Virus record (IMG/VR): IMGVR_UViG_3300015610_000291
Span: 60,936-80,935 of that record
Reading direction: 5' to 3' (one strand)
DNA from: an uncultured virus (IMG/VR IMGVR_UViG_3300015610_000291)
Lineage: Duplodnaviria; Heunggongvirae; Uroviricota; Caudoviricetes
Length of the DNA: 20,000 nt
Of this stretch, positions 241 through 4,096 are shown piece by piece (within the stretch, counting starts at the first letter, position 1; every line of letters starts with the position of its first letter). The position numbers and the translations under genes are program-made. The notes under the pieces are model-generated. The model ran no database searches. It had not been told where the DNA came from and worked only from the letters and a program-made list of their open reading frames with translations.

Positions 241-1157
241 ACACCAGCCCTCTTGTTGAATTCTCGCGTAATTGCTGAGGTTTCACTAGGAGTTAAAGCC
301 CTGTTAATCACAATCAGTCCACAATGGTCAGTGTTGTCATTGTATGGTGTAGGGATTGTTTGATTTGTGAGAATCTGAGTTCCCACATTTGGAACGGCTC
401 GAATCACTGTGCAGCCTGTGAGTTGTGCAGGTAGTGTTGTTGTAAGCTTGTCGTCTACAGTGTCGTAGTCTAGTCGTTGAGGTGATGCGACAAGTAATGG
501 ACGCATTGATGATGTGGATTGGTAGGCGTGGTTGCCTGCTAGACCCTTAACACTAATATTGTCAATTGTTGCAGTCGTTCCGTTAATTCTTGCCCTAATG
601 TAAACATTGGCTGATTGTGCAACAATGTATTCAGTGTAAGTACCAGCAGTTGCTCTAATAGTCCCCAAGTTTGACCCCATAGCGCAACTAACAGACCCAC
701 CAGAAATACTGATGATAGTGTACGTTACTTTATAGAGCTGACCTACGATGAAGTTCGTTGGGTTTGCTTGTAGCACGAGTGCCCCTGACTCTGCGTTATT
801 GAAATTAACTACCCCACCTGAAATTGTTACTGTTCCGCTTGTTATCCAGCTTGTCGCCCCTGAGCTAAAATCACCATTCAAAACCAATTCAGAACTTAGC
901 GTAAGACCCTTACTCTTATCCAGCATCAACCCTACAGCCTGCCCCACACCAGTGACAGGCACAGTCCCCGCTGCATCTTGATACATTGTAGATAGATCAT
1001 TCGGATCGTAAGCAAAACCTTGCTCATTGTTTGCGAATAGGGATTTGATGATTTGGTTAAGTGTCAAATTAAAAACATTACCAACATTACCAAATGTTCT
1101 TGAAAAAATACTACTTATATCATTACTCAACACTGAGGATTTTCTTGAATAGATCAT
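237..1157 (-). CDS. Putative virion-associated (head/tail fibre or decoration-like) protein with a central carbohydrate-binding-module-like beta domain
   Basis: 306-aa ORF rich in Thr/Ser/Gly/Asn. The N-terminal LFANNEQGFAYDPNDLSTMYQDAAG...VGLMLDKS segment resembles phage structural proteins. ELVLNGDFSSGATSW resembles the start of CBM4/9-like modules. Function is inferred. Confidence 0.6.
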   Translation of the reverse strand: MIYSRKSSVLSNDISSIFSRTFGNVGNVFNLTLNQIIKSLFANNEQGFAYDPNDLSTMYQDAAGTVPVTGVGQAVGLMLDKSKGLTLSSELVLNGDFSSGATSWITSGTVTISGGVVNFNNAESGALVLQANPTNFIVGQLYKVTYTIISISGGSVSCAMGSNLGTIRATAGTYTEYIVAQSANVYIRARINGTTATIDNISVKGLAGNHAYQSTSSMRPLLVASPQRLDYDTVDDKLTTTLPAQLTGCTVIRAVPNVGTQILTNQTIPTPYNDNTDHCGLIVINRALTPSETSAITREFNKRAGV

Positions 1158-1159
1158 AG

Positions 1160-1411
1160 TTATACTTCTGATGTTAAGACAGTAATTTCAATAGTTTCTG
1201 CTGTTGGTGTCCATGCCCATAAAGGAAAACCAGCAGAAACAGATAGGTCGTTAGTTAAGATTTGACAATAAGGCGTAGTTAAAGGGTTTGGAGAAGCTGT
1301 TGTACAAGTAAAGCGTGTATTAGAACCACGAATCTCTTGGATATAAGCAGCCTTAGTTCCATTTAAGATTTGTGTTGGAGTTTGTGTTAGTGTAAATTTT
1401 TGAGCAGCCAT
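1160..1411 (-). CDS. Small beta-rich hypothetical protein, possibly virion-associated
   Basis: 83-aa ORF with AAGAGA SD-like sequence, 2 nt from the next gene in the same orientation. Confidence 0.75.
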   Translation of the reverse strand: MAAQKFTLTQTPTQILNGTKAAYIQEIRGSNTRFTCTTASPNPLTTPYCQILTNDLSVSAGFPLWAWTPTAETIEITVLTSEV

Positions 1412-1855
1412 TTTTATATCTCTTATTCAATTGTTTTTAGAATCTTGTATTATTGTATGTATTAACGACCACTCTAACCTGTCTTAATACTGAGAACACA
1501 GAAGTTGTTCCCCTCTCCACAACTAAAGCTGACATTGCATCAGCTAAATGTTATTATTTATTGTTGTTTTCTTTCTTATTATAAAACTGATTTATCAAGT
1601 AGGGCGTATGTTAAACTTAGCTGATACTATGTAACCACGAATGCTTACACTAACGGTTCGTTCAATAGTCTTTTAGACTTCCACCTACCTCTGTTTACAC
1701 CTAACAGATTCGTCACAAAGGGTTGTTATATGCAAGGATGACGGTGAACATATACAACTAACATCTTACGATTGATAAAACTGAATCAGTTGGTAGTCTA
1801 TTCCTGCCTGTCAACTATCGTCACCCTCCTCAACTAAACAGAGACTTTGGGAGGC

Positions 1856-1904
1856 TATGAGACCCATAAGGGTTTCTGTGTATCTCAACACTTCATCAGT
1901 CATA
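1856..1904 (-). ncRNA. Type I hammerhead ribozyme
   Basis: Minus strand reads TATGA-CTGATGA-A-GTGT-TGAGAT-ACAC-A-GAAA-CCC-TTAT-GGG-TC^TCATA. It shows the CUGAUGA and GAAA core, stems I, II and III, and a GUC cleavage triplet (cut predicted between 1861 and 1860). Stem I can extend via CAGAGAC (1912-1918) / GTCTCTG (1839-1845). Confidence 0.85.
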
Positions 1905-1996
1905 TTAACTTGTCTCTGCCTGAGCAACTACTTCGATAGTGGTGTTGCTGTAGGACTATTTTGTCTTTCGACAATCTTTAATATACAGGATACCCA

Positions 1997-2224
1997 TCAA
2001 TAGATGGGATTCTTCTGAGGAGTAACACAACCATAAAACATTTGCTGTTCTACAATACCTTCAAACTTTACATCTTTATTATAATCTAAATCTCGTAAAC
2101 TCTTATTCACTTCATCACGACAGACATTACAGAAAGTTTCCTCAATCTTCGACCCATCAGAGAGTGTTCTCATTCCTGTTGTTCTTCGTAGCACTACGTT
2201 ACAGCATACACATCTACCTGACAT
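1997..2224 (-). CDS. Small Cys4 zinc-finger-like protein
   Basis: CVCC...CNVC motifs. SD GAGGTG precedes the ATG at 2224. It is the only conventional CDS within the RNA island. Confidence 0.8.
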   Translation of the reverse strand: MSGRCVCCNVVLRRTTGMRTLSDGSKIEETFCNVCRDEVNKSLRDLDYNKDVKFEGIVEQQMFYGCVTPQKNPIY

Positions 2225-2288
2225 CAAACACCTCTTATTATTATCTTAAATACTTCCCTTTTACCGACACAGATAAGGGTGATCTGCT

Positions 2289-2750
2289 ATGAGGACAATT
2301 CTTTACCTGCCCTGTCTAGATTGTTTTATCTTCGTATAAGATACTTCTGTCAACACAAGGAACGCATTAATCTTCTCTTACACCACGACAATCCTAAGCG
2401 TACTTGTTAAACTTGTTTTAACATCTTAAACATGAAGTAATCTGTAACGACATTGCAAATAGTTACACAGACAGTCTAAATTAACGCGCTTGGGATAATC
2501 ATCAACAACTGAAAGGATGCTCTCGACCAATTACTTCTGTTTAAAATCTCATTAATTAGATTGACTAACTTCACAGATTAGTCTTGAGGGATATGAATAA
2601 TATTCAACATCCAACACCGTTTAATAGCCTACCTATTAGCACCCACCACACAACTCAGTAACGCCAAGTCAATTGTGTGTTTGTTTCACTACATCTTTCA
2701 GGGATGGTTGTATTTACTCGTTACCCTCAACAACCTCATGTGCATGACTT
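2289..2750 (-). ncRNA. Candidate large structured, multi-pseudoknot ncRNA downstream of the tRNAs
   Basis: No credible ORF. Many complementary segment pairs, several crossing: 2724-2730/2584-2590, 2719-2724/2658-2663, 2695-2701/2509-2515, 2530-2544/2426-2441, 2486-2496/2391-2401, 2468-2474/2312-2318. Boundaries are approximate. Confidence 0.55.
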
Positions 2751-2757
2751 TAAAATT

Positions 2758-2845
2758 TGGCAGAGAGCATCTTAATCGAAAAGAATGCACAAAGTACACA
2801 ATCTGTTTAGCAAACAGTTTCCAAGACCTCTTGGATTTACTCTCT
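2758..2845 (-). tRNA. tRNA-Ser(GCT), divergent T arm
   Basis: Acceptor AGAGAGT/GCTCTCT, G73 discriminator, encoded CCA. Anticodon arm CTGT-TT-GCT-AA-ACAG, long variable arm, T loop TTCGATT closed by T-A instead of G-C. Confidence 0.8.
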
Positions 2846-2846
2846 G

Positions 2847-2937
2847 TGGCGGAAGGTGAGAGGGTCGAACTCTCAAGGCTTTTACACTCGACTGTTTTCA
2901 AGACAGCTCCCATCGCCAGCTATTGGGTTGACCTTCC
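2847..2937 (-). tRNA. tRNA-Ser(TGA)
   Basis: GGAAGGT/ACCTTCC acceptor, G73 and CCA. Anticodon arm GCTGT-CT-TGA-AA-ACAGT, long variable arm, T arm GAGAG-TTCGACC-CTCTC. Confidence 0.96.
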
Positions 2938-3250
2938 AGATGACCTCTTGTGAACACGGGAGAGGTCTTAACCGTTTTACACACAAGACAACATGGTCTG
3001 CTGCACGCAACAGATAAGATAGTCTGCTATCTCGTATCTTTCAATCTACATTTCAACCAACAAATCCCGAAGCAATTGCGTCTATCGGAGGAGGTTAGGT
3101 AGTGGAACACCTATTAAGTAACCAAACAGTTTGAGCGTCTATCGAAGTGTCCCGATACAGCACAAGAGCAACCTCTCATTCTAGGCTTGTTTGGTGTTAT
3201 TTAACTACAAATCCCAACCTTCGTTTATGGTTTTAGGATTACATCCTTCT

Positions 3251-3283
3251 TTACCAAATCTCCTACAATCTGATACCTTCTTT
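3251..3283 (-). repeat. Copy 1 of a 33-bp motif (AAAGAA-NN-TATCAGATTGTAGGAGATTTGGTAA), inverted relative to 4257-4289
   Basis: 3251-3275 is the exact reverse complement of 4265-4289. Identity extends to 31 of 33 bp. Confidence 0.95.
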
Positions 3284-3638: not shown

Positions 3639-4096
3639 CCCCTTTTCAGCACATAAACCAACCAAAACACACAAAAATATCAAAATTTATATAAATTCTT
3701 ATGAAATTTACACCAAATCACGTTTAATTCACAACAACTAGCACCAAATGGGTATAAATTTAATAAAATACGTTCTTGTCTAAGAGCAACACCAAACACA
3801 ATTAGTCAAGATAACGCAGTTAAACCTGTTTACACCTCAAACAGAAGTGATTATATAAATTATACATACAAAGACTAAATGAGATACATTCTTAATAAGA
3901 ATACTACTGTATGTGATCTAATCCCTATTAGATATGTAATAAGAATATTAATATATATACTAATTATATATATATAGTTTATTATATTTATATAAATAAA
4001 TCTAATTGTCTAGAATCATACATAGCTCATGTATTCTAGATATATAATATTATTTGTTTTTAATTAATATAGCTAATCCCCTTACCCCTTGATTTA

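Follow-up and report, generated by a model that had tools for sequence, protein, structure and literature searches.

The window analysed here, a 20,000-nt stretch of an uncultured phage genome (IMG/VR record IMGVR_UViG_3300015610_000291, positions 60,936 to 80,935, class Caudoviricetes), probably encodes a real type I self-cleaving hammerhead ribozyme that is inserted in a 136-nt double-pseudoknot phage RNA and is predicted from its sequence to cut after C1861. The hammerhead belongs to a sub-type with an A-A opposition at positions 10.1/11.1 and a GNRA-type loop II. An earlier note on this DNA had described a type I hammerhead spanning 1839-1918, upstream of putative virion genes. The class that it proposed is borne out by the anatomy and covariation described below; the span was too short, since the unit of conserved structure extends over 1949-1814. 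All features of this unit lie on the minus strand, and RNA letters are given 5' to 3'.

The hammerhead proper occupies positions 1856-1904, as delimited by the helix map, a motif descriptor and a match to a covariance model (R1, described below) at 1847-1910(-). Read from 1904 to 1856, it is a single complete type I hammerhead, and every element that the earlier note had listed was found in its place. Stem I has 5 bp (UAUGA 1904-1900 with UCAUA 1860-1856) and leads into the core CUGAUGA (C3 to A9, 1899-1893), in which all core letters (C3, U4, G5, A6, N7, G8 and A9) fit. At the base of stem II, positions 10.1 and 11.1 are A1892 and A1877, a non-Watson-Crick A-A; above it, GUGU (1891-1888) pairs with ACAC (1881-1878) under the loop UGAGAU. 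The GAAA segment (1876-1873) supplies G12, A13, A14 and A15.1, the last of which pairs with U16.1 (U1862) as the first pair of stem III (ACCC 1873-1870 with GGGU 1865-1862, loop UUAU). Position 17, where G is disallowed, is C1861, within a GUC site. Hammerhead numbering places the predicted scissile bond 3' of C17, at 1861/1860, where the note had also put it, and U1.1 (1860) would bear the 5'-OH. Ribozymes of the hammerhead class cut 3' of position 17 and leave a 2',3'-cyclic phosphate and a 5'-OH. We searched the window with a strict descriptor that combined CUGANGA, any letters at 10.1/11.1, at least 3 further stem II pairs, GAAA, a stem III of at least 4 pairs including A15.1-U16.1, any letter except G at H17, and a stem I of at least 5 pairs. 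It gave one site on the two strands of the 20 kb, compared to none in 1000 dinucleotide-preserving shuffles. There is no second convincing hammerhead in the whole 80,935-bp genome (34.4% G+C, 229-bp terminal repeats, one tRNA), where a relaxed rule added only one much weaker match.

The hammerhead does not stand alone but is an insert in the variable loop of the larger RNA (1814-1949), whose limits rest on the extent of a BLASTN match to Acinetobacter phage vB_AQ1, the helix map and covariation. This RNA begins with a 5' hairpin, P1' (1923-1949; AGCAAC 1949-1944 with GUUGCU 1928-1923), and the loop of P1' contains the 5' strand of pseudoknot 2 (PK2), ACUAUCG (1940-1934), which pairs with CGAUAGU (1814-1820). 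Next comes a distal extension of stem I (Ib) that the note had already recognized, in which CAGAGAC (1912-1918) forms 7 pairs with GUCUCUG (1839-1845). What appears to be an internal loop between stem I and Ib is one strand of pseudoknot 1 (PK1): CCUCC (1850-1854) pairs with GGAGG (1825-1829). Both pseudoknots are of the H type, and the 3' strand of PK1 follows a loop that crosses Ib. The note had suggested that loop II could contact a CUC in this internal loop, but CCUCC pairs with GGAGG instead, with covariation in relatives, and the complementarity of loop II to the CUC strand is kept neither in one of the closest relatives (L490) nor in the main family described below.

The relatives closest to the window establish these helices. 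A BLASTN search of phage records gave one match, to vB_AQ1 (L001, PQ516282.1), with 73% identity and confined to window positions 1810-1960; the flanks and the genes around the element in that phage are unrelated to those of the window. The two sequences keep seven helices, in which 24 of the 37 pairs are identical and the other 13 differ on both sides, with no pair broken. Two contigs from a pattern scan of metagenomes (L490 and L494) make up a third lineage. In the alignment of these four sequences (A4), 150 of 150 cells are paired, compared to 81% after shuffling and 28-52% when partners are slid, and the covariation score is 0.763 (0.337 when shuffled). Altogether 22 of 38 pairs are changed on both sides: 5 of 6 in P1', 6 of 7 in PK2, 5 of 7 in Ib, 3 of 5 in PK1, two in stem I and one in stem III, with P1', PK2, Ib and PK1 each 100% paired; one pair of stem II also varies (U-A, C-G or U-G). 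The stem II of another relative, L062, differs entirely. The core nucleotides are kept in homologues: all four sequences have CUGAUGA, GAAA, A15.1-U16.1 and the A-A at 10.1/11.1 without change, H17 is kept, and the cleavage triplet is GUC or GUA.

We give almost no credence to the idea that the motif is a chance arrangement or protein-coding sequence. Annotated coding sequences CDS0079 and CDS0080 do overlap the element in PQ516282.1, and a 48-amino acid (aa) plus-strand open reading frame (ORF) spans 1857-2003 in the window; however, the motif occurs in none of the 1000 shuffles, compensating changes are paired in seven helices without a broken pair, and the similarity to vB_AQ1 ends at the borders of the RNA structure. 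The two coding sequences that overlap the structured RNA in vB_AQ1, at 2971-3084 and 3133-3258, are annotated as hypothetical proteins and are probably not genes.

The architecture of the window's element recurs in a much larger family. Patterns from its conserved 3' part led us to 118 IMG/VR loci, which hold 102 distinct elements. A perfect 6-bp PK1 is present in 99 of these; the Ib partner is also present upstream in 88 and only downstream in 9. An alignment of 62 hammerhead-bearing members of the main family (A3, in which some invariant columns are fixed by the search pattern) has 94% of its cells paired, compared to 72.9% when shuffled and 33-42% when slid. By helix, A3 has 100% of cells paired in PK1 and in Ib, 98% in the 5' hairpin and 90.5% in PK2; a single position shows as many as six pair types, and 15.1-16.1 is A-U in 62 of 62 sequences. 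The main family also has conserved unpaired nucleotides: CGYGGAG, GAAUAACU, ACAUCU and CAC. The covariance model R1, built from the main family with the window excluded, has only one match in the 20-kb window (1847-1910(-), 22.7 bits, E = 2.3e-4), which covers the hammerhead and the PK1 strand.

Some main-family features are missing from the window. It has no P0 helix (CUNG with CNAG), in place of which CAGG and GUGA form no helix, and it lacks the strings CGYGGAG and GAAUAACU, where UCAUAG and UUUAGUUGA stand. P0 is absent throughout the window's subfamily, whose members share GUGA/GUGC and UGAC instead of the P0 helix and the main-family strings. Judged by sequence, this AT-rich subfamily is a divergent branch that shares the architecture of the main family but not P0, CGYGGAG and GAAUAACU. 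One copy, L487, is intermediate, combining main-family 5' motifs with a shorter crossing loop, and relatives with a canonical G10.1-C11.1 pair (L084 and L014) carry the same scaffold. In L014, the hammerhead-scaffold copy is followed after about 100 nt by an int-alpA RNA (RF02996; 147-214, minus strand), whose score of 53.6 bits exceeds the gathering threshold.

No Rfam 15 family matches the scaffold, and the scaffold copies have no hit there at E ≤ 1; a search of literature text for conserved 12-mers of the family returned two unrelated papers only. Two other search patterns were much less specific. The pattern GAAAC..GTC..GCCTCCCAA matched at least 115 loci, mostly noise: about 50 of the matches are one protein-coding gene read on the opposite strand, and a core regular expression flagged 17 of the 117 matches listed, among which the only real types are L006/L007/L106/L108, L062/L119 and L084. 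The pattern ATGACTGATGAA..AGAAAC matched at least 112 loci, with no real member among the matches listed. In bacterial genome contigs, 11 of the first 120 pattern matches pass a test for PK1 and Ib, so the family is mainly a phage feature. By DNA or model match it is present in several culturable systems (Escherichia coli lambdoid prophages, Mycobacterium phage Gaia, Arthrobacter phage Constance, Enterobacter and Pectobacterium phages, and Acinetobacter phage vB_AQ1), which makes experiments straightforward.

The A-A at the base of stem II, to which the note had drawn attention, is part of a natural series. Among 101 distinct upstream regions, a strict parser accepted 51 as hammerheads, with G-C at 10.1/11.1 in 22, A-A in 13, U-U in 13 and G-U in 3; position 17 is C in 34 of them, A in 16, U in one and never G. 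A loop II of the form (U)GNRA(U) is found in 26 of the 29 hammerheads without G-C, but in only 4 of the 22 with G-C (Fisher P = 2.8e-7, uncorrected for relatedness). The window has UGAGAU, and loop II is GNRA-type in all its relatives (GAGA, GCAA or GAAA). The combination of A-A at 10.1/11.1 with a GNRA-type loop II, as far as sequences tell, is uncommon but recurrent. A receptor for the GNRA loop could possibly lie in the PK1 or Ib helix, aligning stems I and II. The series G-C/A-A/U-U, linked as it is to a GNRA loop II, bears on how much weight is given to the 'most conserved' pair of stem II. Natural hammerheads with a U10.1-U11.1 mismatch are active (Perreault et al. 2011, PMC3088659), and the search described in that paper discarded matches mispaired at 10.1/11.1 unless their activity had been measured. 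We found no hammerhead paper naming A10.1 or A11.1, although the alignment supplement of PMC3088659 is not text-searchable and an earlier listing is possible. Outside the scaffold family, L008 and L009 contain a type I phage hammerhead with a C10.1-A11.1 mismatch (UCCUAA-CUGAUGA-C-GUGU-AAUA-ACAC-A-GAAA-stem III-UC-UUAGGA).

The scaffold occurs in three layouts. The commonest, which is also that of the window, has the hammerhead in the variable loop. The second has no hammerhead, and its loop is short or holds another insert (for example L135, L151, L197 and L248); 23 of the 102 distinct elements belong here under a rough rule, truncated copies and those with a variant core included. The third is circularly permuted, in the order hammerhead, 3' half, linker hairpin, 5' half, and was found in at least six lineages (the L420 type, L363/L410, L449, L452/L481, L416 and L478); PK2 and Ib still covary in it. 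The predicted cut lies immediately 5' of one and the same scaffold position in every layout, and the permuted copies support the idea of an open loop at this predicted position as the wanted product. One permuted copy, in an E. coli prophage (L483, 2790-2855 and 3040-3246), has its hammerhead and scaffold in the loop of a hairpin of about 17 bp (ACAGGUAAGAGCAUU ... AGUGCUCUUUCCGUUGU). A second copy of this hairpin, with a loop of only 31 nt, lies 250 nt upstream, and the two look like a filled and an empty site.

The genomic surroundings of the family are varied. Of the 118 loci, 22 are within 300 nt of a tRNA gene, all of them on the same strand and none on the opposite strand. Copies without a hammerhead are not significantly nearer to tRNA genes than the others (8 of 23 versus 14 of 79, Fisher P = 0.09). 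One scaffold copy follows a T7-like capsid gene. Of 5426 complete E. coli genomes, 148 carry the lambdoid prophage copy, which is located between the Q antiterminator and the holin gene and has no annotation in them. Several loci have other structured RNAs nearby. A 190-kb IMG/VR phage contig (L418) has a run of more than 20 tRNA genes that holds a hammerhead-less scaffold copy and a complete RNase P RNA gene of bacterial type A (3695-4046, 261 bits). In the phage contig L478 (reverse complement, 1911-2294), ARAGORN calls a permuted two-piece transfer-messenger RNA (tmRNA) with the tag ANESTFLKVA, about 170 nt downstream of the permuted hammerhead-scaffold. In the L483 prophage, between Q and holin, the permuted hammerhead-scaffold is preceded at a distance of 177 nt by a tmRNA-like tag frame (2905-2960; ANDDVVLMAA, two stops, A-rich lead-in); this frame has weak matches to the Rfam models tmRNA_permuted (26.3 bits versus 47) and beta_tmRNA, and neither Rfam nor ARAGORN gives it a tRNA-like domain.

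We propose, at somewhat less than even confidence, that the host scaffold represents a class of phage RNA that is both new and widespread: a double-pseudoknot of about 105 nt that travels with tRNA arrays, tmRNA, RNase P RNA and late-operon leaders and exists in closed, hammerhead-nicked and permuted forms, with the hammerhead as its maturation device and the window's element as a divergent AT-rich member. If this is true, it is always the same loop that the hammerhead opens, whatever the layout, and the RNA ends up in two pieces or with new ends.

In the window, the gene order around the element places it at the head of the late operon. The minus-strand order after it is ORFs of 83, 306, 113 and 117 aa and then the large terminase subunit, followed by portal, protease, decoration and major head proteins, connectors, tail proteins and tape measure. 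The note's statement that virion genes lie downstream therefore holds at the level of the operon; it does not hold for the first two ORFs (1160-1411 and 237-1157), which carry no assignment. The unit would be transcribed from the minus strand as part of a long RNA that spans the region of tRNA-Ser and the small ORF and continues into the terminase-to-tail operon. A hammerhead cut after C1861 would nick the scaffold loop, leaving an upstream RNA that ends in a 2',3'-cyclic phosphate within the same fold, and a downstream late message whose first nucleotide, U1860, bears a 5'-OH, lies 6 nt from a pseudoknot strand and stays embedded in the scaffold. Structured 5' ends and 5'-OH ends are poor substrates for 5'-end-dependent decay. 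The purpose may be end formation or maturation, providing a protected and defined 5' end for the late message, a two-piece scaffold RNA, or both.

A different purpose would be sensing, with the pseudoknotted scaffold responding to a ligand or protein, switching cleavage and so tuning the late-operon RNA. The unpaired nucleotides listed above for the main family are strongly conserved, the scaffold is joined directly to stem I and shares with it a conserved motif that contains the 3' strand of this stem, and the element stands at the start of late operons, all of which would suit an allosteric ribozyme. Such a role is nevertheless quite improbable, given the hammerhead-less copies counted above (by the rough rule), the many copies inside tRNA arrays, which fit a stand-alone stable RNA, the lack of a match to any known riboswitch family in Rfam, and the lack of a conserved class of neighbouring gene pointing to a ligand.

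Several observations weigh against our reading of the element as an active hammerhead in a phage RNA, some of them touching the cut itself. The two halves left by the cut would share 19 bp (7 in Ib, 7 in PK2 and 5 in stem I), which speaks against a simple separation of transcripts; because these pairs still join the halves, the product may be a nicked two-piece RNA and not two free transcripts. The 10.1-11.1 pair is the most conserved pair of hammerheads after 15.1-16.1, and the mismatch best tolerated there in mutagenesis is U-U, not A-A (PMC3088659), so cleavage with A-A may be slow. Rfam hammerhead models, which the note had named as a check, give no match at gathering in the window, where the best weak match is Hammerhead_3 with 15.7 bits compared to a gathering score of 48.5. 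Contigs from three metatranscriptome runs do not cover 1787-1977, and since contigs cannot show RNA ends they are uninformative about expression or cleavage. The link between the window's subfamily and the main family rests on architecture and partial similarity, because R1 aligns only its model positions 47-109 to the window and does not report vB_AQ1 at E ≤ 1. Finally, the element is absent from all 33 phage loci that encode relatives of the 306-aa protein, and in the syntenic gap of L371 a small membrane-type ORF takes its place; the element is therefore dispensable for this type of operon, and the unit of about 150 nt behaves as an exchangeable module.

Some of these points would fit a dead hammerhead-shaped domain, in which the three-way junction serves as architecture only and the A-A abolishes useful cleavage: the mismatch is at the most conserved pair of stem II (PMC3088659), the Rfam scores are far below gathering, no RNA ends have been seen in contigs that in any case neither cover the element nor can show ends, and the scaffold also occurs without a hammerhead, so that cutting is not needed for the scaffold itself. 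We consider this unlikely. The catalytic core and a non-G position 17 are kept in the four subfamily sequences and in the 51 parsed members while the stems vary, and a junction that was architectural only would not need the catalytic positions. The repeated co-occurrence of A-A or U-U with one particular type of loop II, seen in many lineages, looks like selection and not decay. One copy (L180, which matches Mycobacterium phage Gaia) has a covarying U3/A8 core, a compensatory change known to be active (PMC3088659). As to the Rfam scores, relatives with a canonical G-C pair also fall below gathering (22.3 versus 52 bits for L084, 27.3 versus 48.5 for L016), as does the E. coli prophage copy (24.7 versus 34 bits), so the Rfam hammerhead models are insensitive to the scaffold-linked group, which they currently miss.

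The remaining features of the locus surround this unit on the minus strand. Upstream, tRNA-Ser(UGA) (2847-2937), the only tRNA of the genome, is 900 nt from the element, and promoter-like sites lie further upstream at about 4125-3016, their number being at chance level. Directly upstream is an ORF of 76 aa with two CxxC pairs (1997-2227). It is zinc-ribbon-like and has a good ribosome-binding site, its stop codon lies within a terminal CCCAUC/GAUGGG hairpin, and it matches no PHROG or Pfam family; its DNA is conserved in L371. Downstream there are about 400 nt without an ORF before the first late genes (1-1411, encoding the 83-aa and 306-aa proteins and the start of a further ORF), and a terminator-like hairpin, AGCUGAUGCAAUGUCAGCU followed by UUAGUUG, lies in this interval (1527-1545). 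For a check on RNA we collected contigs over 1100-3100 from the three metatranscriptome runs and from one probable DNA run, whose contig (record 25, 1713-2042) bridges 1787-1977. The non-coding segment 1559-1786 is represented by contigs from the three metatranscriptome runs, belonging to two studies and 90-99% alike, at about 1589-1786, 1605-1772 and 1668-1783; one of them continues into unlike sequence at 1783. This segment may be a separate conserved RNA, or a leader common to relatives without the hammerhead unit.

Comparison with known systems separates the scaffold from other small RNAs of phages and bacteria. T4 species 1 and 2 (rnaC and rnaD) are likewise small stable RNAs of unknown function among phage tRNA genes, but T4 rnaC ends in a tRNA-type T arm, which the scaffold lacks; R1 with filters off gave only hits of E > 1 in the T4 tRNA region containing rnaC and rnaD, and no match in phage PaP3. 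Two-piece tmRNA genes resemble the scaffold family in having a circularly permuted order. Unlike them, the scaffold lacks a T arm and an encoded CCA, and the third pair of its terminal helix is not a conserved G-U; neither ARAGORN nor Rfam calls it a tmRNA. We also considered tRNA mimicry, as there is a conserved CAC after the terminal 7-bp helix, and rejected it on the grounds that NCCA is found in only 3 of 81 copies and that there is no T-arm motif. The topologies of hepatitis delta virus (HDV)-like, twister, theta and tmRNA folds do not map onto the scaffold in our own reading, and Rfam gives nothing at E ≤ 1; a possible resemblance to twister and to tmRNA pseudoknot sequences was not retained.

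Among self-cleaving RNAs, the theta ribozymes (Kienbeck et al. 2024, PMC10879173) are similar in being associated with phage tRNA genes, where they are proposed to provide processing independent of host RNases. They are HDV-like, of another class and fold, and lie directly at the 3' ends of tRNAs; hammerheads go unmentioned in PMC10879173. The U10.1-U11.1 hammerheads described in PMC3088659 share with the window a natural and conserved non-Watson-Crick base of stem II, which in the window is A-A instead. Pseudoknots beside a hammerhead are also known from pseudoknot-stabilised hammerheads (PMC3088659; see also PMC11300833), but their pseudoknot joins loop I to loop II or its tail. The pseudoknots of the window lie within the host RNA (one between an internal-loop strand and the 3' flank, the other between the loop of the 5' hairpin and the 3' tail) and are also present in copies without a hammerhead.

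Among the closest known systems are also the type I hammerheads of phages and prophages (RF00163; PMC3088659), which have the same core and three-stem junction with stems II and III capped and a similar intergenic position in phage operons, and for which Perreault et al. propose a role in processing long phage transcripts. The window's hammerhead differs from them in its A-A at 10.1-11.1, in scoring below every Rfam gathering threshold, and in a stem I that is not open but runs into a conserved double-pseudoknot RNA. Little is established about what hammerheads do in phages; the one described here comes with a constant partner RNA and the same predicted structural cut position whatever the gene order, and a hammerhead in a spacer becomes a testable maturation step of a defined RNA. 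Hammerheads in phages were already known, and what is new is the fixed embedding of this one in an uncatalogued, permutable double-pseudoknot phage RNA.

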